Source of the DNA: Candidatus Saccharimonadota bacterium
GTDB taxonomy: Bacteria; Patescibacteriota; Saccharimonadia; Saccharimonadales; AQU-01
Direction of reading: 5' to 3'
Length of the DNA: 64,000 nucleotides
Assembly (NCBI GenBank): GCA_018499905.2
Contig: JAHBAU020000007.1
Coordinates: 11,408-75,407 of the forward strand
Every line of letters starts with the position of its first letter. Within the stretch, counting starts at the first letter, position 1. Both the position numbers and the translations under genes were made by a program. Under the pieces are notes generated by a model. The model was not told where the DNA came from and made no database searches. It worked only from the letters and a program-made list of their open reading frames with translations. Of this stretch, positions 10,711-60,745 are shown one piece after another.

Positions 10711-10773
10711 ACTGTCCTCTGGGCTAACGCTACCTTACGAGATAATGTTTTACGTCTGTTAATTGGTAGGTAA

Positions 10774-44969: not shown

Positions 44970-45160
44970 TATTTTGTTCCCTTCGTTTTTGTTGTGCGTT
45001 TTGCGATGAATGAATCTAAAGCCTGTTGACTAATACGATAACCCTTACCGAGTTTTACAGCTTCTAGCTCTCCTTTTTTGATGTAGGTTAGGACACTCTG
45101 CCAGTGAAGTTGGAGCAAATCTGCTACGTCCTGTACGGTGTAATATTTTTTGTCTACCAT
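44969..45160 (-). CDS. Excisionase-family (HTH_17-like) DNA-binding protein; candidate directionality factor
   Basis: YYTVQDVADLLQLHWQSVLTYIKKGELEAVKLGKGYRI matches the family. Its stop overlaps the recombinase start as TAATG. Confidence 0.65.
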   Translation of the reverse strand: MVDKKYYTVQDVADLLQLHWQSVLTYIKKGELEAVKLGKGYRISQQALDSFIAKRTTKTKGTK

Positions 45161-45201
45161 AATACTCTCCATTATAAACATTTATAAATAAATATCAATG
45201 A

Positions 45202-45336
45202 CTACTCCTTAGAATCATTTTCTAATTGTTTGAAGTAACGATCAAATAAATAGTTGAACGCTTCTGCAACAGCACTCGTATCACCGTCATCGACGAACTC
45301 GTATTCTATAACTGGTGATACGGGTTTACGTGCCAT
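45202..45336 (-). CDS. Possible 44-aa acidic mini-protein
   Basis: ATG at 45334-45336 lies 4 nt after the primase stop and reads MARKPVSPVIEYEFVDDGD.... It is below the ORF-track cutoff. Confidence 0.25.
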   Translation of the reverse strand: MARKPVSPVIEYEFVDDGDTSAVAEAFNYLFDRYFKQLENDSKE

Positions 45337-45339
45337 TGT

Positions 45340-47529
45340 TTAAGCCTTTGGTTGCTCCAAATTAGTAACCCCACCATGCTCACCACTATATTGTTCTGGC
45401 TCAATTAGTTGAGGGAAGATAAGTTTGTTGCGTTTATCGTAGGGGTCTTTTTCTTGGGTTATCAAGCCAGCTGCTTCGAGCATCGGTAAGATTTGACGAC
45501 GAAGAATATCGTCATTAGGCAAGCGATTTTCAAGTTCATAGTGACGATGAATGATCTCTTTGCGACTGACACCAGCATCGTCTCCAATTTGTTTAGAGTT
45601 CGGCTCACGATCTGCATTCTTTGCTACATAGATAGGCACAATGTATTTCTTGTAGAACTCGTAAGTATAGGGCGGTATGTTAAGCTCTTGGCTCTTGTTT
45701 ATCTTTTGCCAAACCTCAAATCCTTGATCAATGTCAGATTGAGTTGCAACTACATTTCCATTATCAGCACGGCGATACCAGACATTAAGCAGGGTTATGC
45801 ACTTGATAATTGATAGAAGGTGGCTCACATCACGCTGGTGACGTGGCTTAGTTGATTGAACATGGCTTAAGAAGCGACGCTCAATGATATTGGGGTCGGG
45901 TACTACAATGTCGTCTACGTGCTCTTGTTTAATCGCCAGTACACGGTCTTTAAGTTGCTGACGTTCTGGGCTTGCCTCAATTTTCGCCAAGAACTCAGCT
46001 TTGTTGGCATTACGGAGCGTAGCCATATGCACACCCTCTTGTACTTTTTCAATAGTTGTTTCGGGGCTCAACAATATCGCACGAGTCGCTTCTTGCTCAT
46101 CGAGACGCATACCTGCTGAACAAAAAATTGTTGCAGGAAATCCACGAATAATAATGTTTTTCGCACGGTTAGAACCTTTTTGGTTCTTATCTGTTATCTT
46201 GTAAGAAATCTCTTTCTTGTCATGAGACATTACAGGACGTAAGTTCTCCTGCAATTTGGGATTTGGCTGCTCAAGAAACACTAGAATCTTACGCTCAAGA
46301 TCAACAATGTAGCAGTTACGATCCTTATCAAAGCTGGCGTTATCATGGAAAAACGCCGTTGGTGATGCACCACCAAATTGACGTACATCTGCATCTGGGA
46401 AGTATTGAGCTACTTGGGTTGGAATGTAGGTCTTACCAGTCGATGACGGTGCATTGAAGCTTACATTTAGCTGACTGTCTTCTGTGTAGGCTGATAGCAT
46501 GCACAAGAAGCTGACTAGCTTATTCTCGTTGTCATGCTTGATTGTTAGATCGAGCACTGATGCTAGTTCTGAAGTTGTAATTTCTTTGAAGGTACTGACA
46601 TCTATCGGTTTTGGACCAGAGCGTAATTCTGCATACTTATCAAATAGATCGCTTGGATCAGCGTTTGGTAATTTGAAGTAATCTGTAATATCGCCATGTG
46701 CACCAACTTCGTGGGGGAGGGAAATTTGCAGTACTGAAGTTGAGGGTAGTGCTTGCGATAGTTTTTCGATAAGCTCGTTAGCACCTTGTTCGCCAGCCTC
46801 ATCGTTATCGAAGCATATGTATAAATGACGCACAGACGTGAGCTGATCAATCCATTCTTGTTTGAAGGTACGAGCACCAGCAGTAGAAGATATGGCTGGT
46901 ATACCAAATGCACGCAATACTAAGCAATCAAATTCACCTTCACAAATTACTAGTTGGTCAGGTTTTTCTTTTAAGATTTCAGCATTGAATATTGCACCTT
47001 CACCACCAGTAGACATATATTTTGCACTTCCAGAAGCTACGAAAGGGTCTTGACGTAATTTCATGAATTGCACAGTGCCAGAAGCATCACGAACGGGGAT
47101 CGTTACCCAGCTCTTACCGTAGAATTCGCCGTAGCCTAGTTCATAATCATCAATATCTTCCTCTAGCAATAAGCGATCATTTTTCAGCCACTCACGAATG
47201 TTTAGTGGCAGCTGATTGTGGTATTTTGTAGCTAATTTCGTAGGGCTAGAGGGTTGGTCAAAAGTTTGACGGGTGAGAGTTTCAGGAGTGATTCCGAATG
47301 CTTTATTTAAGCCATTCATACCGCCATTTTCTCCGCACTTGTGACAATAATATTGACCCGTATTGGCATTTATATATAAATGGGCTTCATTCCCACGGCT
47401 ATCAGCATCGCAGTCGTTGAAAATACAGTGGGTGATTAGTTCATTGCCACGTTCACGAAAATCTATATTGCTGTCTTTGAGCATGTCTTTAATGTTTTGA
47501 GTAGGGTAGGAATTCATAGCGAACTCCAC
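45340..47529 (-). CDS. Primase-helicase-like replication protein (Zn finger, TOPRIM, P-loop)
   Basis: Zn finger HCIFNDCD...YYCHKCG. TOPRIM motifs ICEGEFDCLV and ICFDNDEAGEQG. Walker A FNAPSSTGKTY. Confidence 0.7.
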   Translation of the reverse strand: MEFAMNSYPTQNIKDMLKDSNIDFRERGNELITHCIFNDCDADSRGNEAHLYINANTGQYYCHKCGENGGMNGLNKAFGITPETLTRQTFDQPSSPTKLATKYHNQLPLNIREWLKNDRLLLEEDIDDYELGYGEFYGKSWVTIPVRDASGTVQFMKLRQDPFVASGSAKYMSTGGEGAIFNAEILKEKPDQLVICEGEFDCLVLRAFGIPAISSTAGARTFKQEWIDQLTSVRHLYICFDNDEAGEQGANELIEKLSQALPSTSVLQISLPHEVGAHGDITDYFKLPNADPSDLFDKYAELRSGPKPIDVSTFKEITTSELASVLDLTIKHDNENKLVSFLCMLSAYTEDSQLNVSFNAPSSTGKTYIPTQVAQYFPDADVRQFGGASPTAFFHDNASFDKDRNCYIVDLERKILVFLEQPNPKLQENLRPVMSHDKKEISYKITDKNQKGSNRAKNIIIRGFPATIFCSAGMRLDEQEATRAILLSPETTIEKVQEGVHMATLRNANKAEFLAKIEASPERQQLKDRVLAIKQEHVDDIVVPDPNIIERRFLSHVQSTKPRHQRDVSHLLSIIKCITLLNVWYRRADNGNVVATQSDIDQGFEVWQKINKSQELNIPPYTYEFYKKYIVPIYVAKNADREPNSKQIGDDAGVSRKEIIHRHYELENRLPNDDILRRQILPMLEAAGLITQEKDPYDKRNKLIFPQLIEPEQYSGEHGGVTNLEQPKA

Positions 47530-47804
47530 AGAATCATCTGATAGTTTAAGTTCATGATTTCGGCAATGAATTTATCTTCATCTATCTGTAGTAGGCGTTT
47601 ACTCCAATCATTAGCAGCTTGCTCGATGCTGCTGGTTATCTTGAAATGATAAATAAAGCTTGAGTTGAGGCTACGACTACGTTTTTTGGTGGGGTGCATA
47701 CTTATCATTTCGTAACCTTTGCTTAGAAGTGCAGCAGCCAATGCTAAATCCTCAGTATCAAAGGAACTGATGCCTTCATCGATTTTTCTTATTACTTTCT
47801 TCAT
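47514..47804 (-). CDS. Small protein, DUF5659-like (from memory)
   Basis: FDTEDLALAAALLSKGYEM...FIYHF resembles small phage/plasmid proteins. It overlaps the primase start by 16 nt. Confidence 0.4.
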   Translation of the reverse strand: MKKVIRKIDEGISSFDTEDLALAAALLSKGYEMISMHPTKKRSRSLNSSFIYHFKITSSIEQAANDWSKRLLQIDEDKFIAEIMNLNYQMILWSSL

Positions 47805-47993
47805 TTCTTGTGTCCTTTCTTAAGACGCACTGAACAGACCGATAGAGCACAATGCCTTACCGAATCGTTCTTAATAATTGATTTCTGACCACCAAGTTTT
47901 CTAACTTAAATGTGTCTATTTTAATTTTACGCAGCCAGAAGAAAACCCGCTTGGTACGCTGAATTAGTCTGAAAAACAGACTCTTATTCTGAG

Positions 47994-48782
47994 TTATTCT
48001 GAGATTTTGGTGCTTGTTTCGGCTATTATCGCAATTTGTTGATCTGTAAGATTGGTTGTTTTTCTCACCCGAATACTTTTTGGTGAAGTAGTCATGAAAG
48101 GACTGAGTGCGTTATTTTTACCAAAAATCGATTTATATGTATCGTTATTGAAATTACTCAATCCAAATACACTGATGCCTGCTTTTTTCATTTCTACTTT
48201 GAGATCGTCAAGGTTGACATCTTGATTGGGGTGTTTAGCCAAACAAAATGAAATAACGTTGTACGCCAGACCTTCTCGCATAGGAGTTAAGTAATACTTA
48301 GTATCGCCAATAGTAATCACGGGTACTACAATGCTTTCAAATGATAACTTTGCGTACATTTTATCTAGCTCAGCCTTAAATGTAGCGACGTTTTTATCTG
48401 ATTCATCAATTATTGTTTTCATTTCTGGGGTGAGATCGGGTATTTTTTTACCAGCTTTAATACACAGTCTGCTGACGCTTGAGTTATGTGCTTCACCATA
48501 GTCTCCTCCGCTGTGGGTGAATTCTATAGCTGGTACAAATTCGTGGGCTTGCTCTAAATTATCTAGTACACGCCAGCAGATACCTCCTCCAAGTTTTTTT
48601 AGTTCTGGCTGACGATCATATATTTGTTTTAGCTCATCTACCATTAAGATGTAGCTACGGTTGACGGCTGAAAGGTCAGGGGTGCTTCTATTATCAACAA
48701 CCATAGTGAAGATATTGATCACACGATCATTCAGAATTTTCGCTAGTGCGTAATCGTTGGCAGTATCGGTATTTTTGCTCAT
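47994..48782 (-). CDS. Hypothetical protein (262 aa)
   Basis: Clear ORF, divergent from the 76-aa HTH gene. No motif recognised. Confidence 0.45.
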   Translation of the reverse strand: MSKNTDTANDYALAKILNDRVINIFTMVVDNRSTPDLSAVNRSYILMVDELKQIYDRQPELKKLGGGICWRVLDNLEQAHEFVPAIEFTHSGGDYGEAHNSSVSRLCIKAGKKIPDLTPEMKTIIDESDKNVATFKAELDKMYAKLSFESIVVPVITIGDTKYYLTPMREGLAYNVISFCLAKHPNQDVNLDDLKVEMKKAGISVFGLSNFNNDTYKSIFGKNNALSPFMTTSPKSIRVRKTTNLTDQQIAIIAETSTKISE

Positions 48783-48877
48783 TTGCTAACTATTATAAGT
48801 GATTTGCAACATCTAGCAGAATAGCCAATCTGTCATAATTAAAAGAGAAGGCTGAAACAAAAAATGAGGTTAAGTTA

Positions 48878-49108
48878 ATGATAAAAAATAGAATTAGTAA
48901 TAGGCATAAGGTTACCTACCTGACTTTAATTAACATTGCTGATGATATACAGCGTAATGCTACAGTGACCGAGACATGTCGAAAGAATAATATTTCAAGA
49001 GACACATTCTACCGATACTTGAAAAATGAACCTGAATTTACTGAGCTTATAATTAAAGCGTATAAGTACCAGAGCGAAGTACCTACACCATTTTTTACAA
49101 CCCGTTGA
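48878..49108 (+). CDS. Small HTH protein
   Basis: TVTETCRKNNISRDTFYRYLK is a helix-turn-helix of the resolvase/terminase-small/transposase-N type. Confidence 0.45.
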   Translation: MIKNRISNRHKVTYLTLINIADDIQRNATVTETCRKNNISRDTFYRYLKNEPEFTELIIKAYKYQSEVPTPFFTTR

Positions 49109-49232
49109 TCTGACAGTTATGCGAAAACTCCCTTACTTTTGTGGGGTTATCTTCAATTTTGTGTAAGATCACTACTCCTGTTAGTATGAAAATATGACAC
49201 GAGAAAAAAGAAGAAAACCGCAGCTTGAGACT

Positions 49233-49401
49233 GATGAAATAATTACGGTAATCTTACCCGTTATCAACAGCTAAATCTGGAAAAAAATTTGTAAGCAGTT
49301 GCACTACATTTTTACTGATGTAAAAAGTGAACGACATAACCTCAAATAATATACCCTCTAGGATCTACATAGAGGTCATAAGAGGTGTTTTTGGACAAAA
49401 G
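49233..49401 (+). repeat. Direct repeat copy 1 (about 170 bp)
   Basis: Aligns with 55971-56140. Exact shared runs are aaaaagtgaacgacataacct (21 nt), agaggtcataagagg (15 nt) and acggtaatctta (12 nt). Confidence 0.8.
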
Positions 49402-49505
49402 TTGAGTGTAGGTGTGTTCTCACAAAAGCAGACATAATTTCAAAACCTTTCCTAATATACTTTCTGCTCTGTAAAGACTTAGGCTAACAAGCTATAATTA
49501 TCTAT

Positions 49506-50369
49506 ATGCAAGAAAAACATGATGAAGTCATTGAGGGTGTTGAAAATAATGAACAGAAACCTACCAAAAAGCACAAACTAGGTAAGCGTTCGAAGATAGT
49601 AGTAGCTCTGTTAGTCGTCGCTGTGCTTTTACCTCTATCTTATGCTGGCTATGTATATGCTGCTTCACCTGACGTTATTCGTAAACCCAAGCTAGAACAC
49701 TATCATTTTAGAATGCAGGTATTGGTTGACGGTAAAGCGGAAGACTTTAGTACTCAGGGCTACCAGACAGGCTACGCCAAAGACCAATGTAACGCTAACC
49801 TGCCAGAACAGCCTATTCACTTCCACGACAATAAAGACCAGTTTACCCATATTCACTGGGAAGGCATGACAGGCGGTATGGTTATGAAGTATTACGGTTG
49901 GGACTTTATAGGTGGTATGAAAAATGCACTGGGCTATAAGCTAGATAATCCGAAAGACCCGCAGAAAGTAACCACGCACGGTAACTACCTGCCAGCCATT
50001 CCGAACGATGCAAGGTTCTATATTTATACTGGTGATGAAAATGGCTATCAAGAAAAGAACTTTGAGGATTGGAAAAACCAAGACCTTGAGCAGTTCTTTA
50101 ATAAGACCAGCAACTTCCCAGCTCACGAACAAAACAAACAATCTAGCTTATTAGATAAAGTCTTCCCTAAAGCTAATGCTCATGGCGGCGAAGATGACGG
50201 CAATGATGGTGAGCCTGGCGAAGAAACCGAACAAGAAAAGCTAACTCGTATCAATAATATGGTAGGAAATGTCGTTATTTTTGTGCAAAAAGACAAGCCT
50301 ACCGACCAGCAAATTAAAGAGCGTTTTAATGACCTTGAACCACTTACGGACAGTACATGCGGCGGTTAA
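49506..50369 (+). CDS. Membrane-anchored secreted protein with His motifs
   Basis: N-terminal TM segment. HYHFRMQVLVDGK...PIHFHDNKDQFTHIHWE, then an acidic C-terminus. TATAAT lies 7 nt upstream of the ATG. Confidence 0.5.
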   Translation: MQEKHDEVIEGVENNEQKPTKKHKLGKRSKIVVALLVVAVLLPLSYAGYVYAASPDVIRKPKLEHYHFRMQVLVDGKAEDFSTQGYQTGYAKDQCNANLPEQPIHFHDNKDQFTHIHWEGMTGGMVMKYYGWDFIGGMKNALGYKLDNPKDPQKVTTHGNYLPAIPNDARFYIYTGDENGYQEKNFEDWKNQDLEQFFNKTSNFPAHEQNKQSSLLDKVFPKANAHGGEDDGNDGEPGEETEQEKLTRINNMVGNVVIFVQKDKPTDQQIKERFNDLEPLTDSTCGG

Positions 50370-50695
50370 GCAAAATCACTTTGAAAACATTTGCCACACT
50401 TTTTGTAGGTGTGCTTTTGCTCACTTGCTCATTGGGTGTTTTGTCTTCACACACAGGTGAGGCAAGCCAGCAGAAAGTAAGTTGTAGTTCGTCTTGTCAT
50501 TCTCATGGACAATCAACAGCTATAAACAGTCAAGCTAATAAAGACGAAGATGATAAAGAGCCTACGCCACCACCGTTTAGCTGGTTTCAAATACCCGCCA
50601 ACCTAGCGTTGTTATATGTAATGCCAGTTTTTGGTGTTTTATGGTTCGTTAGTAATAAGCAAAAGATACTACTGACCACGCAACTCAGATTTTGA
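50357..50695 (+). CDS. Small membrane protein with a CxxxC motif
   Basis: Signal/TM segment, CSSSCHSH, an acidic stretch and a C-terminal TM segment. It is a paralog of 56472..56840. Confidence 0.45.
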   Translation: MRRLSKITLKTFATLFVGVLLLTCSLGVLSSHTGEASQQKVSCSSSCHSHGQSTAINSQANKDEDDKEPTPPPFSWFQIPANLALLYVMPVFGVLWFVSNKQKILLTTQLRF

Positions 50696-50740
50696 GATTA
50701 CTTAAGTATCCAGAGTAATTTTAAAAATAAGGAGTTTGTT

Positions 50741-51394
50741 ATGAGCGGTAAAGGATTTTGGATTGTATTAGCGGTAATTTTAATAGGCTTCATTGGTGTT
50801 ATAACCTATACCAAAAAAGATAAAGCGGCAGAGAGTGGCTCAACAGCTAGTTCGCAAGGCTCGCAGAACTATTACGGCAAAATGGATAGCCCCGTTACTA
50901 TTACGGAGTTTGTAGATTTTCAGTGTGAAGCTTGTTATGCCTACTACCCGTATGTTAAGCAAGTAAAAGAAATTTACAAAGACAAAGTACGTTTTCAAGT
51001 ACGTAATTTTCCTATAACATCAGGGCATCAGTTTGCTTTCCAAGCTGCCAGATCAGCGGAGGCTGCTGCACGACAAGGCAAGTTCTGGGAAATGCACGAC
51101 AAGATTTTTGAAGGACAAAAACAATGGGAGCAAACCCAAAACCCACAAAGCTACTTTGATCAATACGCCGAAGATATTGGCTTAGACATGGAAAAATACC
51201 GTACTGATCGTGATAGTTCAGATGTAGCAGCCGTCATCAATAAAGACTTGGCAGATGTGAAAGAAATCGGTGGAACTGGGACGCCAACTTTTGCGATAAA
51301 TGGAGTGAAAGTAGACAAAACAGAGCCTAGTGTAGAAGGACTTTCCAAGATGATTGACGATGCACTTGCAAATCAAGGTGGAAGCAATGAGTAG
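50741..51394 (+). CDS. DsbA-family thiol:disulfide oxidoreductase
   Basis: N-terminal TM segment, active site FQCEACY (CxxC) and a cis-Pro loop GTGTPTF. Confidence 0.8.
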   Translation: MSGKGFWIVLAVILIGFIGVITYTKKDKAAESGSTASSQGSQNYYGKMDSPVTITEFVDFQCEACYAYYPYVKQVKEIYKDKVRFQVRNFPITSGHQFAFQAARSAEAAARQGKFWEMHDKIFEGQKQWEQTQNPQSYFDQYAEDIGLDMEKYRTDRDSSDVAAVINKDLADVKEIGGTGTPTFAINGVKVDKTEPSVEGLSKMIDDALANQGGSNE

Positions 51395-51899
51395 TAAAAA
51401 GAAAACAATACTGTTTTTTCTCCTCCTATTTTTTACAGCCGTAATTACAATTGCAATACAGGCAGCAGTTCAGAGCAGCACCTCAAAAAACGATCAGGAA
51501 AATACCGCTGCGTCTGCTCACGATGAAACAAACAGCGACGGTCATCATAATAGCGACAGTGAAGAATTAGGTGACGTAGTTGATTTGACGAATCAAAACG
51601 AAGTCTCAATGGACATAAAAGATTTTAAGTATGAGAAATCGAACATAAAGATAAAAAAAGGTACGAATGTAACGTGGACTAATCAAGACGAAGTCCAGCA
51701 CAATGTAATGCAAGAACACGAAAACGATAATGACGCTCACGATGCACCGTCTAAAGATGAAGAAAAGCCTGATGTTTTAGCAAGTCGATTGCTATCTAGA
51801 GGAGAAAGCTACAGTTACACGTTCAATGAAGTCAGCACTAGCCCATACCACTGTTCTCCACACCCCTATATGAAAGGCTCGGTAACTGTCGTTGAATGA
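51387..51899 (+). CDS. Amicyanin-like cupredoxin
   Basis: Signal peptide. The type-1 Cu ligand pattern is QHNV...YHCSPHPYMKGSVTV. The start overlaps the dsbA-like stop. Confidence 0.8.
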   Translation: MSSKKKTILFFLLLFFTAVITIAIQAAVQSSTSKNDQENTAASAHDETNSDGHHNSDSEELGDVVDLTNQNEVSMDIKDFKYEKSNIKIKKGTNVTWTNQDEVQHNVMQEHENDNDAHDAPSKDEEKPDVLASRLLSRGESYSYTFNEVSTSPYHCSPHPYMKGSVTVVE

Positions 51900-52593
51900 T
51901 CAAGACTTCTCTAATGTTAATAGCGTAAAAAAGCATAAGATAATTTTTGCGATCGGGGTGTTTCTTGTAGTGGTTTTAATGACTCTGGTTTCTTTACGAG
52001 TAATTTCAAAGATACCTGATACACCAACAGAATCGGTTACTGAGTCTACCACACAAACGCCTAGCAGTGATCCGTTAGCTTCTATGATTCAGCCTGTACA
52101 AGGTGCTGTAGGAGATGAGTTTGATGCGAAATACGTCGAGTTATTATTTGTGCATAATGCAATCAGTACAGCAATGGCTAATTTAGTTAAAGATAGCCAA
52201 GATAAGGAGATTCGAGAATTTGCAGACTATATAATACGCTCAAATGTGGCAAGTAATGAAAAACTTCTTACGTGGTCTAAAGATCTGAAGGCAAGTACTA
52301 GTCCACCGAAACAAACAGACGTAGACACGATTGTTGCAAACCTGACAAGCAATTCAGGTGAGGAGCGGGATCATCAGTTCGTTTTGGATATTATTGACCA
52401 TCTAGCGGGCTCAACAACGTTGTCAAAGTATGCAATATCTAATAGTGACAACAGCGAAATTAAGAATTTTGCTAATCAACTAATTACTGATGAAAGTACT
52501 CAAGCTGAGACTTTTCAAAAATGGGCACGAACCGTCAGTTTCGATAGCGATGACAGACAAACTTTTAACCATGACAAGCATGATAATTATTAA
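51892..52593 (+). CDS. DUF305-like protein with degenerate His motifs
   Basis: TTG start overlaps the cupredoxin stop. It has the two-repeat layout of DUF305, but reads FVHNAISTAMA and IIDHLAGSTTL instead of HHxGA(I/V)xMA. Confidence 0.45.
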   Translation: MNDQDFSNVNSVKKHKIIFAIGVFLVVVLMTLVSLRVISKIPDTPTESVTESTTQTPSSDPLASMIQPVQGAVGDEFDAKYVELLFVHNAISTAMANLVKDSQDKEIREFADYIIRSNVASNEKLLTWSKDLKASTSPPKQTDVDTIVANLTSNSGEERDHQFVLDIIDHLAGSTTLSKYAISNSDNSEIKNFANQLITDESTQAETFQKWARTVSFDSDDRQTFNHDKHDNY

Positions 52594-52704
52594 ATGATGA
52601 GGGGGATAATAACGTGGGTAAGATAAGAATCTTTGTCAGTCTCAATGCACTTTATGAAGATGAAGTAATGTCAGACACTTTAGAGCTAAGGTTGTTGAAT
52701 AAAT

Positions 52705-54042
52705 ATGCCAATTGATACTGATGCTGCAAGGGCTTTAATGGCGGATAGTCTCGGCTTTCATATCATTTTTGCGTTGCTTGGTGTTGGATTGCCATTGGTA
52801 ATATTGCTTATAGAACAGCTTGGGTTACGAAGAAAAGACCCGCTTATTTTAGAGCATGCCAAGCGACTATCTTACGCTACGGTAATCTTGGTTGTTGCAG
52901 GCGTAGCATCTGGTACTATCATTTCAATTCAAATGTCACTAATGTGGGGTAACTTGATTGAGTTCGGTGGCCAAATTATGGGACTTGCTTTCGGTTGGGA
53001 AGGTTACGCTTTTATGTTGGAGGCTGTGTTCCTTGCGTTTTATGTTTCTACCTGGGGTATAATAAAGGGCTGGAAGCATTGGTTGCTAGGCGTACCTGTA
53101 GCTATTGGCTCGTTTGGGTCAGCATTTGCAATTACTCTTGGCAATGCTTGGATGCAGAATCCAGGTGTGCTTAATGTTGTTGAAGGCGTGGTACAGACCG
53201 ACAATCCAGTACGAGAATTGTTCACTAAAACCGCATTCTTTATGGTTAGTCATTCGGTTGCTGGCTATTACCTTGCCACGCTACTGTGCGTACTTGGGAT
53301 TTATGCCTTTTATACATTGAAATTTAAGCCTAGCGGCAAAGACCAAAATGCTGTCAGGCAGATTATGTTTCGTCTGTCGGCTACTGCGGTGTTCTTTGTT
53401 GCTGTTACTGCAGTGCTTGGACACTTCCAGTCGCAATACTTAGCAGAGTCGCAGCCCAGAAAGTTCGCAGCGATAGAACTAAACGAGGAAACTCGTACGA
53501 ACGCACCGTACATTATTGGGGGACACTGGAAAGAGGACGGCACAGTTGAAGGCGGTATTCGTATACCAAATATGCTAAGTATCTTGGCTGGCAACAGTCT
53601 ATCTACGGAGGTTAAAGGTTTACAAGACTTCCCGAAAGATACGTGGCCAATGCTTTTTGTGAATATCTTGTTTGAGTCAAAGTTGCTCCTAGTCGCCATT
53701 GTATCTAGTGTGTCAATTTTGTTTACGGTATTACATTATAAAAGGCTAAACGAAAAGTACCGTGCTTGGCGATACAAAAAACCACTACTTATTGCGTTAT
53801 TGCCGCTCGGTCCATTAACGATAATAATCGTAGAACTTGGCTGGATGGTAGCAGAATTTGGTCGCCAACCATTCGTGGTTAATGGCTATATGCGTACTGA
53901 CCAAGCCTTTTCGGGACAGATAGGCTCATGGGGTTACATATTCCCAATACTATTCGTAGTTCTCTTTATTGTTACCACAATAGCCCTCTGGTTGCTGTTT
54001 AAGAAACAGGGCAAAATTAAACCAGCGAAAGGCTTGCTGTAG
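52705..54042 (+). CDS. cydA: Cytochrome bd-type oxidase subunit I
   Basis: 445 aa. TM1 carries a His (LGFHIIFALLG). GWEGYAFMLEAVFLAFY and FGRQPFVV also match CydA. The Q-loop is short. Confidence 0.8.
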   Translation: MPIDTDAARALMADSLGFHIIFALLGVGLPLVILLIEQLGLRRKDPLILEHAKRLSYATVILVVAGVASGTIISIQMSLMWGNLIEFGGQIMGLAFGWEGYAFMLEAVFLAFYVSTWGIIKGWKHWLLGVPVAIGSFGSAFAITLGNAWMQNPGVLNVVEGVVQTDNPVRELFTKTAFFMVSHSVAGYYLATLLCVLGIYAFYTLKFKPSGKDQNAVRQIMFRLSATAVFFVAVTAVLGHFQSQYLAESQPRKFAAIELNEETRTNAPYIIGGHWKEDGTVEGGIRIPNMLSILAGNSLSTEVKGLQDFPKDTWPMLFVNILFESKLLLVAIVSSVSILFTVLHYKRLNEKYRAWRYKKPLLIALLPLGPLTIIIVELGWMVAEFGRQPFVVNGYMRTDQAFSGQIGSWGYIFPILFVVLFIVTTIALWLLFKKQGKIKPAKGLL

Positions 54043-54560
54043 TGTCTGCCCTCTGGTTCGTTGTCGTGCCACTAATGGTTTACATACCGATGTTTCTAGT
54101 TGAGCTGTATATTGCATTTCGTCGCATCGGTAAGCCATTAGACAAGGGGGGTGAGTATCTTCATGCCACTTGGGAGGCAACCCATACTTTTCTGGTATTG
54201 GCACTCAACTATTTTATGTGGTTATACAGTTCAGCAATAGTTGATGTTGCGAGGTCAGTATTTATCCCGCTCATAATGTTTGGTGCTGTTTTTATTGTTC
54301 GGGCAATCCTGTACATTTACTTGTTCTATATAAAAAAATCTACCAAGCCCAACCTAATAGCGGATTGGGCTTTTGCCTTGTGCCATGTCGTAATGCTTGT
54401 CTGTATAAGTTACGTAACTATTACGACTGCCCAAATACTGCTTGGCGGTGACTATGAATCAAATCACATCCTACTACCATTGTTGTATCCAGGGCTATTT
54501 TTGATGATTCCGCTAGTGAGTGTGCCGCTTTACTTCTTGTACAAGACGAGGGGCAAATAG
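54042..54560 (+). CDS. Small polytopic membrane protein; possible non-canonical oxidase partner
   Basis: GTG start overlaps the cydA stop as TAGTG. At 172 aa and about 5 TM spans it is half the canonical CydB size. ATWEATHTFLVL faintly recalls the CydB WDGNEVWL motif. Confidence 0.35.
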   Translation: MSALWFVVVPLMVYIPMFLVELYIAFRRIGKPLDKGGEYLHATWEATHTFLVLALNYFMWLYSSAIVDVARSVFIPLIMFGAVFIVRAILYIYLFYIKKSTKPNLIADWAFALCHVVMLVCISYVTITTAQILLGGDYESNHILLPLLYPGLFLMIPLVSVPLYFLYKTRGK

Positions 54561-54563
54561 ACT

Positions 54564-55046
54564 ATGGATAGGATCACAATTTTTGCTGCTCAATATTTGA
54601 TATACATAATAGCGATTACTATACTTTTTTACGTATTACTTAGGTTACCAAGAGGCGAACTAAAAACATTTATCACCTTGTGTGGTATGGGCATAGTAGC
54701 GGCATTCATTATGGTTAAGGTAGCTGGAAGCATTTACTACAATCCACGTCCATTTGTAGACGGTAATTTTATGCCATTATTTCCGCACAGCTCTACAAAC
54801 GGCTTTCCTTCAAACCACACAGTAGCGGCAGTTCTGGCTGCGTTATTGTTATGGCGGTATAGTAGAAATGTTGCAGTAGGATTGTTTATCGCTGCATGTT
54901 TAGTTGGACTGGCTAGGGTATTAGCTAGCGTTCATCACATAGAAGACATTATCGGGGGCATTGTCATAGCAACCTTTGCAGCTTTATTCGCTAACCTAGT
55001 ACTTCACCATATTTCGAATCGTAAAGTATCCAAGACAGATAACTGA
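54564..55046 (+). CDS. PAP2-family phosphatase
   Basis: Motifs YYNPRP, PSNH and RVLASVHHIEDI (SR-x5-H-x3-D type). Confidence 0.7.
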   Translation: MDRITIFAAQYLIYIIAITILFYVLLRLPRGELKTFITLCGMGIVAAFIMVKVAGSIYYNPRPFVDGNFMPLFPHSSTNGFPSNHTVAAVLAALLLWRYSRNVAVGLFIAACLVGLARVLASVHHIEDIIGGIVIATFAALFANLVLHHISNRKVSKTDN

Positions 55047-55058
55047 TAGAATTACACT

Positions 55059-55949
55059 ATGGCACACTCACACAAAACAGAAATAAAAGACGGTAGTATA
55101 AAGTTCGGGCTTGTCCTCAACAGTTTGTATACGATAGTTGAGTTTGGCTTTGGTTTATTTACAGGCTCTCTAGCTTTAATTGCCGACGCTACACATAATC
55201 TCACTGATACTTTTACGCTAAGTGTTTCTTATGGTGCTAATCGGCTGGCAAGACGTGAAGCAAACGAGAGCAAAACATTTGGATATGGACGTGCCACAAT
55301 CCTTGCGGCATTACTCAATGCCAGCGTAATGATTGCAGTCGCAGTCTTTATTGCTTTTGAAGCTATACAGCGATTACAGAACCCTGTAGAGATTGAGGGT
55401 GGTATTGTTGCAGCAGTTGCAGCAGTAGGTATAGTGGTGAATGGCTCAATAGCTTATGTGCTGTCAAAGAACCGTAAAGACCTGAATATGCGGAGTGCCT
55501 TTATAGATATGGCATTCGACGCTTTATCTTCGTTTGGAGCAATGATAGCTGGTTTGATTATGTTATTCACAGACATACTGTATGTAGATAGTGTAGTTGG
55601 CTTACTAATTGCAGGACTCTTGCTATACAACACGCTTAAAATACTAAAAGAAGCGGTGCAGATATTACTTGAGGGAACTCCCAAAGACTTAGACATAACA
55701 GCCATCACACAAGCAATAAATGATACAGATAAAGTACTATCAGTTGATGATATGCACGTCTGGACGATACGTTCTGGTTATAACGCACTTAGCTGCCACA
55801 TTGCTATTGATGAAAAAGACCTAACAGAAAGTCGCAATATAGTAGAGTCAGTAAAAGCCAAGCTACGGAATGTACACGATATTCAGCACGCTACTATTGA
55901 AGTTGAGCTAGAAGACTGCACCACACACGAAGAACACGAAAGCCACTAG
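55059..55949 (+). CDS. Cation diffusion facilitator (CzcD/ZitB-like) exporter
   Basis: TM2 has ADATHNLTD and TM5 has IDMAFDAL. A C-terminal cytoplasmic domain and a His-rich tail (HEEHESH) follow. Confidence 0.85.
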   Translation: MAHSHKTEIKDGSIKFGLVLNSLYTIVEFGFGLFTGSLALIADATHNLTDTFTLSVSYGANRLARREANESKTFGYGRATILAALLNASVMIAVAVFIAFEAIQRLQNPVEIEGGIVAAVAAVGIVVNGSIAYVLSKNRKDLNMRSAFIDMAFDALSSFGAMIAGLIMLFTDILYVDSVVGLLIAGLLLYNTLKILKEAVQILLEGTPKDLDITAITQAINDTDKVLSVDDMHVWTIRSGYNALSCHIAIDEKDLTESRNIVESVKAKLRNVHDIQHATIEVELEDCTTHEEHESH

Positions 55950-55970
55950 AGCAGTTAAGACGTACTAGCA

Positions 55971-56140
55971 GACGAAATAATCACGGTAATCTTATTCGTG
56001 ATTGATAGCAATAATTGAGGGGAAAAAATTGTGAGCAGATACTTTACATTATTCTGGTTCAAAAAGTGAACGACATAACCTTAAATAATCTACCCTTCAG
56101 AAGTTACACAGAGGTCATAAGAGGGGTGTGATGACAAAAG
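55971..56140 (+). repeat. Direct repeat copy 2 (about 170 bp)
   Basis: Same orientation as 49233-49401 and shares its exact runs. Confidence 0.8.
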
Positions 56141-56149
56141 ATAAATAAG

Positions 56150-56179
56150 TTGACTAATACCCCTAGGGGGTATTAAGAT
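56150..56179 (+). promoter_or_regulatory. Promoter with an embedded CsoR-type operator
   Basis: TTGACT at 56150-56155 and TAAGAT at 56174-56179. The perfect palindrome ATACCCCTAGGGGGTAT (56157-56173) fills the spacer. The ATG lies 6 nt after the -10. Confidence 0.6.
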
Positions 56180-56185
56180 AATTGT

Positions 56186-56470
56186 ATGAGAACTGACATC
56201 AAAAAACGGGCAAGCCACCGCACTAAGATTATTGAAGGCCAGATCAAGGGCTTGCAGAAAATGATTGATAACGAAGACTATTGCATGGACATACTGACTC
56301 AAAGCCTTGCTATTCAGAAGTCACTCTCCTCTCTTAATAAGCTAGTTTTAGAAAATCATATAACCACTCACATCACTGATATGCTTGCTTCTGGAAAAGA
56401 AAATGAACAAACAAAAGCTCTGGATGAACTTATGAAACTTTACGAGCTTAATAACATTAGGGGTAAATAA
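56186..56470 (+). CDS. CsoR/RcnR-family metal-sensing repressor
   Basis: RTKIIEGQIKGLQKMI...DYCMDILTQSLAIQ...ENHITTHI. The ligand positions read Cys33, His58 and His62. Confidence 0.85.
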   Translation: MRTDIKKRASHRTKIIEGQIKGLQKMIDNEDYCMDILTQSLAIQKSLSSLNKLVLENHITTHITDMLASGKENEQTKALDELMKLYELNNIRGK

Positions 56471-56471
56471 C

Positions 56472-56840
56472 TTGAAGCACCTATTCGCCCTTAAGAACAT
56501 AGCCGTAATAGTTGCGGTATTGTTTCTAAATTCAGTAGCTTCTTTAGCTCACACTTCTGCAATGCCAGCAATGACGCATGAGGTGAATGGTGGTATGAAG
56601 TACAGCTCAAGTGATTCTGCCTCGTGTGCCACGCTGTGCCGAACAGCCGTGCTTAATAAAGATGAATCTATAGATTCTGATTATGACGAAGAAAATGATG
56701 AACCTGCCGTACCTTTCTATTTGCTTACCAAAGCTGAGCAGTTTAACGACAACACAGTAAACCAAAAGATATATGCAGAATCCGTAAAGCCACCACCTAA
56801 GATACCGATATATATTCTCTACGGTGTCTTTAGGGTTTAG
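56472..56840 (+). CDS. Small secreted/membrane protein with a CxxxC motif
   Basis: TTG start 2 nt after the csoR-like stop. Signal segment, CATLC and an acidic stretch. It is a paralog of 50357..50695. Confidence 0.4.
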   Translation: MKHLFALKNIAVIVAVLFLNSVASLAHTSAMPAMTHEVNGGMKYSSSDSASCATLCRTAVLNKDESIDSDYDEENDEPAVPFYLLTKAEQFNDNTVNQKIYAESVKPPPKIPIYILYGVFRV

Positions 56841-56889
56841 GATTCGTTCTACGCTTTAACGACATTCTTAAATTTAATCTGGAGAACAT

Positions 56890-57570
56890 ATGAAAAAGAA
56901 TAAAAGTAATAAGAACAACATCATTGTAGTGGCGATTGTCGCCATAGTAGCGATAGCAGGAGTCAGTATCTATGCTATGAGTAATGATGATGGGATGATG
57001 GGCGACAACAATATGATGGGTAATAACTCATCACAACAAGCAAGTTCAAGCAGTCTCGTAGACAAGAACTCAGCTGAATACAAAATGTACATCGAACTTA
57101 CTAGTGATGACTATGACCGTATGTTTATTGCCAATATGATTGAGCATCATAAGGGTGCTGTCGACATGGCAGAACTAGCGTTAACCAATGCAAAACACCA
57201 AGAGCTAAAAGATATGGCTAATAACATCATAGCGGCTCAAAGCAAAGAAATAACAAACATGGAAGCTTGGCAGAAGGATTGGGGATACCCAAGTAGTAGC
57301 GGTGAGATGATGATGGATCACTCGGCAATGGGTATGATGGCTGATATGGGTCAAATGACTGAAGAGCTAAAGAGTTTAACGGGCGATGCTTTTGACAAGG
57401 CTTTTTTGGCTTCAATGATTGAGCACCACCAGTCGGCAATAAATATGGCTTACCCAGGTCAGACAAATGCTAAGCACGATGAGGTAAAAACATTAACACA
57501 GGCAATCGTAGACGCTCAGAGTAGTGAAATTGCCCAGATGAGGCAATGGCAAAAAGACTGGGCTTACTAG
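56890..57570 (+). CDS. DUF305-family protein (canonical)
   Basis: Signal/TM segment. Two repeats read FIANMIEHHKGAVDMA and FLASMIEHHQSAINMA. The N-terminal region is Met-rich. Confidence 0.8.
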   Translation: MKKNKSNKNNIIVVAIVAIVAIAGVSIYAMSNDDGMMGDNNMMGNNSSQQASSSSLVDKNSAEYKMYIELTSDDYDRMFIANMIEHHKGAVDMAELALTNAKHQELKDMANNIIAAQSKEITNMEAWQKDWGYPSSSGEMMMDHSAMGMMADMGQMTEELKSLTGDAFDKAFLASMIEHHQSAINMAYPGQTNAKHDEVKTLTQAIVDAQSSEIAQMRQWQKDWAY

Positions 57571-57581
57571 GTTAAAGTACT

Positions 57582-59600
57582 ATGGACCATTCTCAACATG
57601 AACACCACCGAACGGAGCATCAGGAGCACGACAAACATGCTGGTCATTCAGTAGCAATGTTCAAAGATAAGTTCTGGTTGTCATTGTTACTAACTATACC
57701 CGTGCTCATATATAGCGAAATGATACAGCACTGGCTCGGCTTCACGCCACCAGCATTTCCTGGCTCGCAATATGTGCCGTTTGTGTTTAGTACCATCATC
57801 TTTTTCTATGGCGGAATTGTGTTCATAAAGGGTGCTATTAGTGAGCTAAGGGCTAGATTGCCAGGGATGATGACACTTATCAGCTTGGCAATTATCACAG
57901 CCTACGCATACAGCGTTGCTACACAGTTCTTCATTGACGGAGAGGGTTTCTTTTGGGAACTCGCAACCCTAGTAACAATTATGTTGCTAGGGCACTGGCT
58001 AGAAATGGCTTCAGTCGCAAAAGCTGAGAATGCCCTAGACGCAATATCACAGTTGCTACCTGACAAGGCAGAAAAGCTAGTCAATGGCAAACCAAAACAA
58101 GTGTTAGTTAGTGAGCTTAGTGTTGGTGACTTAGTACTAGTACGTCCAGGAACAAGAATACCGATTGACGGTGTAATAACAGACGGTAGCTCATCGATTG
58201 ATGAAGCGGCTATTACAGGTGAATCAAAGCCTGTAAGTAAGACAGTTAATGATGAGGTTGTTGCAGGTACAGTGAATCAGGACGGCTCAATAACAGTGAA
58301 AGTTACCAAGCTAGGAGACGACACAGCACTAGCAGGAATTATGCGACTAGTTGCCGAAGCCCAAAGCTCAAAATCTAATGTTCAAGTGCTGGCGGATAAA
58401 GCAGCTTTTTACCTAACGATCATAGCTATAAGTACTGCTATTGTTACTTTCGTTTACTGGTTGGTTGCTAAAGATATGAATTTCGCTCTAGAACGAGCCG
58501 TTACGGTACTAATTATTGCTTGTCCTCACGCACTTGGTTTGGCGATACCTCTAGTTGTATCAATATCAACTGCATTATCAGCAAAGAATGGATTACTCGT
58601 TCGTAAAAGACTGGCTCTTGAATCAGCACGTAAATTAGATTGGGTGCTATTTGACAAGACTGGCACACTGACTAGAGGCGAACACGGCGTTACAGACATA
58701 TGGGCTACAAAAGGCTATAACAAAGAAGACATAATCCATCTCACTGCAAGCCTTGAGCAAAACAGTGAACATATTGTTGGTAAAGGCATTGTACGAAAAG
58801 CCGAAGAAGACCATATTCATCTAGATAAAGTAACCAATTTTAAGGCTTTGCCAGGTCTAGGCGTGCAAGGTTCTCTACATGGTAGTGAAGTGTATATTGC
58901 AGCCAGCTATCGATACGTTGAAGAAAACAAGCTAACAGTTCCTGCTGACATAGCTAAAGTAGTTAAGCAAGCTGCAGAAGAGGGCAAAACAGAGGTTTAT
59001 CTGATAAAAAATAATAAAGTTGTTGGAGCATTAGGATTAGCCGACATAGTACGTGAACAATCTAAGCATGCCATAAGAACACTCAGAGAAATGGGTATTA
59101 AGACAGCTATGATTACAGGTGATTCTGATGAGGTTGCAGCATATGTATCAAAGCAGCTTGGCTTGGACCAGTACTTTGCAGAGGTTAGACCAGAAGACAA
59201 GGCTGCCAAGGTAAAGGAATTGCAGAAAAATGGACAAAAAGTCGCTATGGTAGGAGATGGTATCAATGACGCACCAGCCCTTACACAAGCAGACATAGGC
59301 ATAGCTATTGGTGCGGGTACTGATGTGGCTATTAAGTCGGCAGATATTATTCTCGTAAAAAGCGATCCCCAAGACGTAGTAAAGGTAATAAACCTATCAA
59401 AAGCTACGTATAGGAAAATGAGCCAGAATCTAGTTTGGGCTACTGGTTATAACGTCTTTGCGATACCTTTGGCTGCTGGTGTGTTGTATGGAGCTGGCAT
59501 AGTGCTTGCCCCTGCACTTGGAGCAATCCTAATGTCGGTTTCAACAGTTGTTGTAGCAATAAACGCACAATTACTTCGCAAAGCAAAGCTTAGTTCATAA
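57582..59600 (+). CDS. copB: P1B-type ATPase, CopB-like (CPH motif, His-rich N-terminus)
   Basis: N-terminus MDHSQHEHHRTEHQEHDKHAGH. TM6 CPH at 58521-58529, DKTGT at 58653-58667 and GDGINDAP. Confidence 0.9.
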   Translation: MDHSQHEHHRTEHQEHDKHAGHSVAMFKDKFWLSLLLTIPVLIYSEMIQHWLGFTPPAFPGSQYVPFVFSTIIFFYGGIVFIKGAISELRARLPGMMTLISLAIITAYAYSVATQFFIDGEGFFWELATLVTIMLLGHWLEMASVAKAENALDAISQLLPDKAEKLVNGKPKQVLVSELSVGDLVLVRPGTRIPIDGVITDGSSSIDEAAITGESKPVSKTVNDEVVAGTVNQDGSITVKVTKLGDDTALAGIMRLVAEAQSSKSNVQVLADKAAFYLTIIAISTAIVTFVYWLVAKDMNFALERAVTVLIIACPHALGLAIPLVVSISTALSAKNGLLVRKRLALESARKLDWVLFDKTGTLTRGEHGVTDIWATKGYNKEDIIHLTASLEQNSEHIVGKGIVRKAEEDHIHLDKVTNFKALPGLGVQGSLHGSEVYIAASYRYVEENKLTVPADIAKVVKQAAEEGKTEVYLIKNNKVVGALGLADIVREQSKHAIRTLREMGIKTAMITGDSDEVAAYVSKQLGLDQYFAEVRPEDKAAKVKELQKNGQKVAMVGDGINDAPALTQADIGIAIGAGTDVAIKSADIILVKSDPQDVVKVINLSKATYRKMSQNLVWATGYNVFAIPLAAGVLYGAGIVLAPALGAILMSVSTVVVAINAQLLRKAKLSS

Positions 59601-59629
59601 GTAGAATACGTCGTTGGTGGCATTAAAGT

Positions 59630-60361
59630 TTACTGAATAGGCTTAGCACTACGCTTACTATCTACATTAAAATGCCACACATCGTCATGTTCATACCTTG
59701 CAAGTGCAATGGTAAGATTAGGTGCAGTTGGCTTACTAAGATATATGACTCTTGCAATATCTAATGCTGGTAGTTGATACCAGACTACGTATACATCCGC
59801 AAATACCTCTATTGCTTGTTTTGCACCCTTGCGGATTCCTTCAATCTCTATCTCACCTGCTTGACTGTATATATTTACAATCAATGCACAGTTATCAGGA
59901 TAATCAGCACGCCTAGCAGCCTTCTTGTTGATTTGTGTAATTACGTGAGCATTGCTTACCTTTGTTGCTGGAAAATAGCCCTGCACCATTACCTGCTGGA
60001 CAAGCATTTTTGCGTGAGCTTGATCATGCCATATAGCACCGTCTGATAATACATTTTCAGTCTGAGCCTTTGCAGAATCTTCAATACCTACGAAGGCTTG
60101 GTAAGTGTTTTTTGTACCTGCTTGCTCTGCAACCCATTGATAGTACGAAACAACAGCTCCAAGACCCATTAGCTCACCTGCGTTAAGGTCGATGGTTGTA
60201 CCGCTTGCAAAATTCGCTGGCAAATCAATTGAGTTTAATTTAGCAATGGGACGATTATTGAGCAGTAAGCTTATCTTGTCTTTCGTAGACTTACCGTCGT
60301 ACATACCTAAGACTATCTTAATTGCGTTATCTGGGTGTAGACCAACTCCATCAAAATTCAT
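59630..60361 (-). CDS. Hypothetical protein (243 aa)
   Basis: Clear ORF convergent with copB. No motif recognised. Confidence 0.45.
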   Translation of the reverse strand: MNFDGVGLHPDNAIKIVLGMYDGKSTKDKISLLLNNRPIAKLNSIDLPANFASGTTIDLNAGELMGLGAVVSYYQWVAEQAGTKNTYQAFVGIEDSAKAQTENVLSDGAIWHDQAHAKMLVQQVMVQGYFPATKVSNAHVITQINKKAARRADYPDNCALIVNIYSQAGEIEIEGIRKGAKQAIEVFADVYVVWYQLPALDIARVIYLSKPTAPNLTIALARYEHDDVWHFNVDSKRSAKPIQ

Positions 60362-60458
60362 ACTAACAGTATACTGCTAATCAGTGGAGCGTGGCTTGGC
60401 CATGGCCAAGAATTAGCGTTGTGGTATGGAGTATTAAATATAGTGGTGAGTGTGGTGG

Positions 60459-60540
60459 GGTAGCAAAAATCTGGGAAAAAAATTTTCGCAGGGTTACCAA
60501 CCTATATTTTGGGCAAAAAGATGAAAGAACATATTCCTGA
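60459..60540 (+). repeat. Degenerate third copy of the island repeat
   Basis: aaatctgggaaaaaaatt and caaaaagatgaaagaacata align with the core of copies 1 and 2, at roughly 60 percent identity by eye. Confidence 0.45.
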
Positions 60541-60544
60541 GTAT

Positions 60545-60745
60545 TTACCACTTACCGCCAGCAGTTTCTTGTAGTTCTTTGATCTGTTGAGGAGTGTAGC
60601 CACGTGTTCTTTTATCTAGTGGAGGCATCAAGAAGGTTATATCGAATGGTATGGTTGCGTCTTGTGAATACCAATAGATAAGCTCATAGGTGTGCATTAT
60701 ATCCGACAAATCCTCTTGGGTACATTGAAGTGTTTGCAAAATCAA
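60545..60745 (-). CDS. Hypothetical small protein (66 aa)
   Basis: AT-rich ORF at the presumed right end of the island. No motif recognised. Confidence 0.3.
   Translation of the reverse strand: MILQTLQCTQEDLSDIMHTYELIYWYSQDATIPFDITFLMPPLDKRTRGYTPQQIKELQETAGGKW

Follow-up and report, generated by a model that had tools for sequence, protein, structure and literature searches.

A repeat family heading the cargo blocks of a Saccharibacteria island family, tentatively read as a cis-acting control region

We analysed a 64,000-nucleotide stretch of a Candidatus Saccharimonadota genome (contig JAHBAU020000007.1, positions 11,408 to 75,407; hereafter the window), in which a genomic island at the ychF gene carries three copies of a repeat that we designated REP. 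Iterated searches expanded these to a family of 41 copies of about 150-215 bp, spread over the window and 31 related Saccharibacteria loci. The family is previously undescribed and is specific to one group of related Saccharibacteria islands; a search of the literature on Saccharibacteria islands found nothing. The explanation we favour, held tentatively and with slightly less than even confidence, is that REP is a cis-acting control region heading the rightward cargo arm of these islands, and that arrays of REP copies come from joined islands.

All three window copies were found on the + strand, the shared orientation described in an earlier reading made from the nucleotides of the window alone (the sequence-only reading). 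Copy 1 (49206-49406, profile positions 2-217) comprised an A-tract (49281-49290), TTGCAC (49299-49304), a -10-like AAAAGT (49323-49328), TGAAC (49328-49332) and a right half (49351-49406). Copy 2 (55963-56142, profile positions 21-214) had its TGAAC at 56067-56071 and carried, from about 55971, a start-less remnant of a 26-aa small ORF that is intact at copy 1. The alignment of about 170 bp that had been reported between 49233-49401 and 55971-56140, with exact runs of 21, 15 and 12 nt, was borne out by nhmmer E values of 2e-23 to 5e-23 in the 64-kb window and by two ungapped blocks, one of 92 nt with 80% identity and one of 39 nt with 79%. Copy 3 (60463-60531, profile positions 86-153) consisted of the left half only and stopped right after TGAAA (60522-60526), its equivalent of TGAAC. 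With queries from the window only, this copy was marginal (nhmmer E 0.011 to 5.1). A profile of copies from other genomes, from which the window copies and the right-end copy of locus L001 were left out, returned the window copies as its three top hits, with E values of 2.5e-20, 1e-11 and 4.2e-06 (the last at 60463-60528). The degenerate third copy suspected near 60459-60540 is accordingly judged on sequence grounds to be a real but partial REP copy and not a chance similarity, because a profile built solely from other genomes finds it among the top three hits. L001 has a homologous partial copy at the equivalent position. The first gene of module A begins at 49506, 100 bp past the end of copy 1. 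Copy 2 started about 15 bp past the stop codon (55949) of the CDF transporter gene, the last gene of module A, and ended 44 bp ahead of csoR (56186). Copy 3 lay 135 bp inward of the right att core (60667-60675). The copies do mark cargo-module boundaries, as had been proposed, and related islands show these modules to be interchangeable units. No REP copy was present in the host part of the window.

Two sets of loci were used to place the family in its genomic context: 45 genome contigs carrying the gene for a 287-aa protein of module A, and 33 metagenome contigs carrying the gene for HTH76, a 76-aa helix-turn-helix protein that is the product of the first gene of the rightward cargo arm (48878-49108, + strand). 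REP was present in 2/45 loci of the first set, namely L001, with three copies in a window-like layout, and L005. It was present in 28/33 loci of the second set, the remaining five being contigs of up to about 1.6 kb or weak HTH matches; further copies were found in L079-L082. These counts show that REP is not a conserved 5' region of one cargo gene family. All 41 copies lay on the HTH76 strand, the first usually 60-100 bp 3' of HTH76; in one diverged subfamily REP was located between the recombinase and the HTH gene, where the promoter of the HTH gene must be. REP co-occurred with serine recombinases of two clades and, in L079, the HTH76-REP pair was found in an island with a tyrosine integrase in place of the serine recombinase; the minimal set kept across diverged islands comprised an integrase (serine or tyrosine), HTH76 and REP. 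Because most HTH76 loci carry REP, loci with the 287-aa gene mostly do not, and the integrase type varies, we assign REP to the island backbone and HTH76 and not to any cargo gene family or particular recombinase. Most copies were followed by same-strand genes within about 40-350 bp (exceptions: L005, L056, L060 and window copy 3). The cargo behind REP differed in function between islands and included metal resistance, purE/purC, an MmeI-type restriction-modification enzyme and an ADP-ribosylglycohydrolase; a leader specific to one kind of cargo is therefore excluded. Separately, the tyrosine-integrase island L079 contained about 680 bp without a called gene between HTH76 and REP (10232-10915), where no Rfam family matched at gathering score.

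Conservation along REP was confined to short blocks. Block 1, the 3' part of the small ORF, was present in one subfamily only, and block 2 (AAAATGGCGTTA) was deleted in window copies 1 and 2. Blocks 3-4 consisted of the A-tract GAAAAAAATTT followed by GTTGCT. Block 5 comprised 17 positions without conservation, constant in length in 35/36 copies, and led into block 6 (aaaaagTGAACg), which includes the TGAAC region and in which T, G and A were invariant. A linker varying from about 7-30 nt (block 7) separated this from block 8, ATACCCTCTGt ... TAGGAc.gGTTTTagg.caaAAGatGaG. The most frequent best-scoring promoter register was TTGCTn, 17 nt and a -10 hexamer ending at the invariant T. Counts at the -35 position were T29 T22 G18 C26 T27 of 36, whilst the -10 position had its last T in 36/36 copies and A at position 2 in 24/36; the TTGCTn-17 register was among the three best in 12/36 copies. 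The short motifs and their exact spacing were kept across HTH76 subfamilies with 41-54% protein identity. We suggest that REP acts as DNA, and neither as folded RNA nor as a peptide. Its left half would be a promoter of sigma-70-type layout, in which an A-tract precedes TTGCTn and a constant 17 nt of free sequence leads to a -10-like hexamer with an invariant last T, its right half would be a transcribed, hairpin-capable leader followed by UUUU, and the HTH protein encoded beside it probably reads or controls it. Two other promoter classes were rejected: an ECF-type promoter with TGAAC as the -35 element, as the distance to the next conserved block varied from about 7 to 30 nt, and a sigma-54 promoter, which on inspection of the alignment showed a misfit in spacing. 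A coding function was also tried and rejected. The 36-aa ORF over copy 1 and ORFs starting from the RTG of RTGAAC gave products of 4-73 aa with no conserved peptide or frame, and the coding part of the repeat was limited to its leftmost end, the 3' end of the small ORF.

A role for REP as a small RNA or a structural RNA leader or attenuator would also account for some features of the right half, for example if a transcript from the left-half promoter ended at the right-half hairpin and U-run and was subject to antitermination-like read-through. The right half folded slightly better than shuffled sequence (mean z -0.93, with 47% of copies below -1 and TTTT following in most), and 68-77% of cells in two hand-drawn stems formed standard pairs. 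However, RNAalifold returned 0 pairs and no consensus structure for the whole element or for each half on both strands, the pairing observed in the two stems was reached by 78/500 and 370/500 shuffles, and no significant compensatory change was detected across the copies. Folding of the left half was no better than that of shuffled sequence (mean z -0.23). The window had no Rfam match at gathering score, searches at E up to 10 gave only chance snoRNA matches (E >= 1.8) for the regions of copies 1 and 2, and a terminator scan of the window did not call the right half. LOOT RNA (Rfam RF03000) scored above the gathering threshold in three related islands (L062 11337-11459, L073 2732-2851 and L067 13013-13135), in two of which it lay 100-143 nt downstream of a REP copy, a proximity that counts in favour of an RNA function; the window had no LOOT match, and a text search on LOOT RNA found nothing. 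Taken together, we consider it improbable that REP works as an RNA.

The gene beside REP raises a different possibility. HTH76 displayed weak small-terminase (TerS) and HTH matches in Pfam and PHROGs, including four PHROG small-terminase families, all weak. Its best fold match was the N-terminal DNA-binding domain of the Sf6 small terminase (gp1), with a TM score of 0.68 and an rmsd of 1.5 A over 59 residues, at a Foldseek E value of about 1. REP could therefore be read as the cognate site of a terminase-like HTH76 in a DNA transaction other than transcription, the main candidate being a pac-like signal by which a helper phage packages a minimal satellite, with the extra copies as relics of fusion. 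Some pac sites have an A-tract and conserved boxes at fixed spacing, as REP does. The minimal set of integrase, HTH76 and REP also suits this reading, and phage-inducible chromosomal islands have a comparable arrangement of an integrase, an HTH protein of excisionase type and a primase. On the other hand, HTH76 has four helices, its 76 aa amounting to a DNA-binding domain plus one helix, and the oligomerization and TerL-binding parts of a terminase small subunit are not present. The fold-search E values are near 1, and a search of 2.9 million viral contigs found no close relative of HTH76 or REP, which is weak negative evidence. A packaging signal also leaves unexplained why a copy is kept before each module and why 17 nt of free sequence part the -35-like block from the -10-like one. 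We regard a pac-like role as unlikely, although it is the main rival to the reading that we favour.

Between HTH76 and copy 1, a terminator-like hairpin and T-run (49131-49146, + strand), conserved in L001, L046 and L051, was located just 3' of HTH76. It was followed by a promoter-like TTGTGT-17-(TGT)TAGTAT, 6 nt and the 26-aa small ORF at 49194-49274 (MTREKRRKPQLETDEIITVILPVINS; promoter and ORF together 49159-49274, + strand), the 3' part of which forms the left end of REP. The small ORF was kept, with synonymous changes, in L001, L005 and many other islands. A 58-aa homologue with an N-terminal hydrophobic segment was seen downstream of a short REP in L061 (6437-6565). We also observed -10 hexamers 6-7 nt ahead of an ATG, with no Shine-Dalgarno sequence, in the window (49182-49194, 49493-49506 and 56174-56186) and in L066 (2600-2620); this arrangement suggests that several island genes have leaderless mRNAs.

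Comparison of islands revealed that REP stands at the junctions of modules that differ from one island to the next. L001 kept HTH76, the small ORF, REP, module A and a second REP, followed by three unrelated genes instead of module B; its right-end block was as in the window, where the 26-mer has the same sequence and is followed by a partial REP, limited to the left half, and by the attP arm. In L051, the HTH gene and REP were followed directly by csoR. L049 and L080 had a diverged REP and module A, then a full unit of small-ORF promoter, small ORF and REP, and then the gene for a 1480-aa helicase-like protein, which also occurred after the second REP in L058. As far as a point slightly ahead of the small-ORF promoter, L058 and L059 were about 100% identical; identity was 80-97% through the small ORF and the left half of REP, and beyond the right half the two were unrelated. 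Between the window and L046 or L001, the backbone was 93-100% identical up to the small ORF, identity fell to 30-50% inside REP, and it rose again in module A. Tandem islands were also observed. L057 (4380-20228) contained two, integrated at the same core, of related but distinct recombinase clades and in one orientation, each with a recombinase, an HTH76 gene, REP and a cargo arm, and in L005 (12330-16800) a second recombinase gene abutted the end of module A. The stepwise accretion of cassettes put forward in the sequence-only reading is plausible in the light of these module swaps and tandem islands, whilst its further proposal, that each insertion regenerated an att-like site, gained no support.

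Under that further proposal, REP would be an att-like site for the site-specific capture and excision of cassettes, as in an integron-like or SCC-like system. Several patterns are consistent with it: modules that vary from island to island are bracketed by copies in one orientation, the subtypes of the left and right halves are combined in varying ways, TGAACG is directly followed by the end of the short copies in each of four independent loci, and homology between L058 and L059 decays just past the TGAACG motif. The recombinase core, however, lies elsewhere. A pattern search for AAT(C/A)CCAAT found it absent in and near 49206-49406, 55963-56142 and 60463-60531. REP accompanies serine and tyrosine integrases alike, and the copies lack the dyad symmetry or fold of attC. 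The left boundaries of internal copies varied, falling in the middle of the small ORF, at the small-ORF -10 element, at motif 1 or at the A-tract, unlike a fixed crossover; the start-less small-ORF remnant in copy 2 and these variable boundaries instead fit deletion end points. The sharp fall from 100% identity between L058 and L059 sits upstream of the small-ORF promoter, not inside REP, and no single-cassette circle or alternative junction was seen. Copies within one island were generally as diverged (53-62% identical) as copies across islands (mean 52%). An att-like function is, in our judgement, very improbable. From this equal divergence, each module seems to have brought its own REP. Copies 1 and 2 of the window were mutual nearest relatives in both halves (76-77% identity), and because they are each other's closest relatives they point to gene conversion or a recent duplication in the window lineage.

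A second suggestion of the sequence-only reading, that the repeats are transposon ends, found no backing, and the broader notion of a selfish or neutral repeat (MITE-like, transposon ends or a non-functional relic) appears extremely unlikely. REP is far more divergent than both of its flanks, as a neutral sequence might be, but all 41 copies point the same way with respect to one gene, terminal inverted repeats, target duplications and a transposase are absent, the short motifs persist at exact spacing across the HTH76 subfamilies, and the host part of the window is free of copies. We also entertained, as quite unlikely, the idea that REP and its terminase-like HTH protein form a dedicated cargo-handling system of the candidate phyla radiation, in which REP would be a docking site to capture, exchange or package whole modules, with a preferred breakpoint just past the invariant TGAACG. 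Such a system would work much like an integron or a satellite packaging signal, while being unrelated to both and not dependent on the island integrase.

To return to the control region that we favour, each REP copy would be the head of the cargo arm of a formerly separate island. Related islands would integrate successively at the same 9-bp ychF core, and the redundant backbone of the inner island, from recombinase to HTH gene, would then be deleted to leave cargo 1, REP and cargo 2. REP would be kept when cargo arms fuse because it is functional; internal copies were indeed retained though other intergenic DNA at the same junctions was less than 30 nt. Copies 1 and 2 would later have been homogenized by gene conversion or would stem from a recent duplication, and copy 3 would be a left-half-only copy that forms part of the conserved right-end block. 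Several observations weigh against this scheme. The promoter hexamers are only moderate matches, one subfamily has TAAATA for TTGCTn, and the invariant GAAC 3' of the -10 element is unexplained by a plain sigma-70 promoter. Downstream genes have good promoters of their own 6-7 nt before the ATG and past REP (49493-49498, 56150-56179 and in L066), so that the proximal promoter of these genes is not REP. A few copies, in L005, in L056 and at window copy 3, precede genes on the opposite strand, and the right-half hairpin is without covariation support. No locus displayed a partly deleted inner backbone, so that the deletion step is unobserved. Finally, the stop codon of the CDF gene has three independent junctions no more than 30 nt away, a clustering that calls for a deletion bias or selection.

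The limits of the island (43313-60666) were set by empty sites in two related genomes, L122 and L123, where ychF lies directly beside a histidine-kinase gene with no island between and where alignment to the window runs through 43312 and resumes at 60667. The island corresponds to a low-GC stretch (0.40 against 0.48-0.50). The att core is 9 bp, AAT(C/A)CCAAT, within ychF codons 5-8, and was present on the left at 43304-43312 (AATCCCAAT), matched to the empty sites of L122 and L123, and on the right at 60667-60675 (AATACCAAT), followed by the displaced original start of ychF. Integration gives ychF a new start (MLSIGIV) from the island (43304-43321), with the original MSLSIGI stranded on the minus strand at the right junction (60667-60687). 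The large serine recombinase (43266-44969, minus strand; Pfam Resolvase and Recombinase domains) has 567 aa in its integrated form, the final 13 codons coming from host ychF DNA. When the island ends were joined in silico, an in-frame ORF of 595 aa resulted, with the tail ...DATIPFDITFLMPPLDKRTRGYTPQQIKELQETAGGKW and a stop codon at 60545-60547 on the minus strand. The attP right arm (60545-60666, minus strand) thus encodes the last 41 aa and stop of the recombinase in the excised circular form, and its peptide matched the C-terminus of the second L057 recombinase with 97.6% identity across 42 aa. As the recombinase gene spans attP and its tail differs when integrated, integration exchanges the C-terminus of the recombinase between the 567-aa and 595-aa forms. 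A 66-aa ORF at 60545-60745 was rejected both as a gene of the island and as the remnant of another one, being the attP-side 3' end of the recombinase gene together with the displaced ychF start. Repeat D5 (42820-42851 and 60394-60425) was likewise rejected as marking the island ends, since ychF is intact around its first copy and the ends set by the empty sites are elsewhere. A second sequence that mimics the ribosome-binding site and start of ychF (ATCGCTATGCTCAACATCTAACCCTACCT, repeat D7) was observed at 43368-43396, 63 bp inside the left island end, and may be a relic of an older junction.

Leftward, the gene order of the island was large serine recombinase, excisionase-like HTH protein, Toprim primase, a 96-aa ORF and a 262-aa ORF. 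Rightward, it ran from HTH76 through the terminator-like hairpin, the leaderless-type 26-aa small ORF, REP copy 1, module A, REP copy 2 and module B to a 243-aa ORF on the minus strand (59630-60361), without a match in family searches, and then to the conserved 26-mer, REP copy 3 and the attP right arm. The 26-mer AATATAGTGGTGAGTGTGGTGGGGTA (60437-60462, + strand) belongs to the right-end block that is shared with L001. An inverted copy matching at 23/25 positions was noted at 45368-45392, within the 3' end of the primase gene, and the 16-nt core of the 26-mer occurred 2 times in the window against 0.14 expected by chance. Counterparts were located at L001 12197-12224 and L057 15161-15184. The minus strand of the 26-mer overlapped a promoter-like TTGCTA-18-TATATT aimed at the 243-aa ORF, and a viral contig search with the 26-mer found nothing.

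Module A (49506-55949, + strand) encodes the 287-aa protein, a 112-aa protein, a DsbA-like protein, cupredoxin, DUF305, cytochrome bd I/II-like, PAP2 and CDF transporter proteins, and has its own TATAAT at 49493-49498, 7 nt before the ATG and downstream of REP copy 1. Module B (56186-59600, + strand) encodes CsoR, a 122-aa protein, DUF305 and a P1B-type ATPase. The csoR promoter, TTGACT-18-TAAGAT (56150-56179, + strand), is not part of the repeat and stands 6 nt ahead of the ATG of csoR; its spacer includes a near-palindrome, ATACCCCTAGGGGGTAT (56157-56173), which we take to be a candidate CsoR operator. REP itself was tried as a metal-sensing leader, a NiCo/czcD-type riboswitch or a CsoR operator, and all three were rejected, given that no Rfam match was obtained, the palindrome is outside the repeat and REP also stands before non-metal cargo. 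Sister islands carried purE and purC (L054 5994-7521), an MmeI-type restriction-modification enzyme with a helicase (L059 13033-17828) and an ADP-ribosylglycohydrolase (L057 13423-14511); purE/purC stand out in a lineage thought to lack nucleotide synthesis.

REP shares features with several known systems. Composite SCC/SCCmec elements, which encode the large serine recombinases CcrAB, are like these islands in their serial integration at one housekeeping-gene site and their one-orientation cargo blocks. The repeats that separate blocks in SCC are short att-derived direct repeats, whereas REP is 150-215 bp, has no att core and also occurs with a tyrosine integrase. Integron arrays, with their attC sites and the Vibrio cholerae repeats, similarly have same-orientation repeats of ~100-200 bp between interchangeable modules, and attC, like REP, was first noticed as an unexplained intergenic repeat. 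An attC site, however, is an imperfect palindrome with a single-stranded fold; it closes the 3' end of a cassette that mostly has a single gene and no promoter, and it depends on the IntI tyrosine recombinase and attI. REP, unlike attC, has no dyad symmetry or fold and no inverted repeat within its copies, and it heads multi-gene modules with their own promoters; the only recombinase in the window island is the large serine recombinase, and no IntI is present. In phage lambda, Q is followed by PR'-qut-tR', and the late promoters of P2 and P4 are activated by the 72-aa Ogr. Such blocks resemble REP, as we read it, in that a small regulator gene directly precedes a conserved promoter or leader standing ahead of accessory or late genes, and in that they recur before several operons and double as places of module exchange. 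HTH76 differs in having no sequence relation to Q or Ogr, with only generic HTH and small-terminase-like matches in Pfam and PHROGs, and we know of no counterpart to the invariant TGAAC motif. The pac sites of phages and phage-inducible islands are similar in that a gene for a small-terminase-like DNA-binding fold lies beside a conserved A-tract site, in an island that also encodes an integrase, a primase and an HTH protein of excisionase type; REP differs from them in its several copies per island, in an HTH76 without oligomerization and TerL-binding domains, and in having no link to viral contigs.

In sum, REP is a variation on the conserved regulatory or boundary sequences of mosaic mobile elements. 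The genomes of Saccharibacteria and of the candidate phyla radiation are tiny, and little is known of their gene gain. The island family described here brings metal resistance, restriction-modification and purine-synthesis genes into one fixed ychF site, and in metagenomes REP can serve as a marker of the heads of cargo blocks, by which such islands are located and their cargo is divided into modules. Should REP prove to be a control region read by the HTH protein, it would illustrate the connection of foreign operons to one shared switch for expression; if it were a capture or packaging site, it would constitute a new gene-mobilization device.

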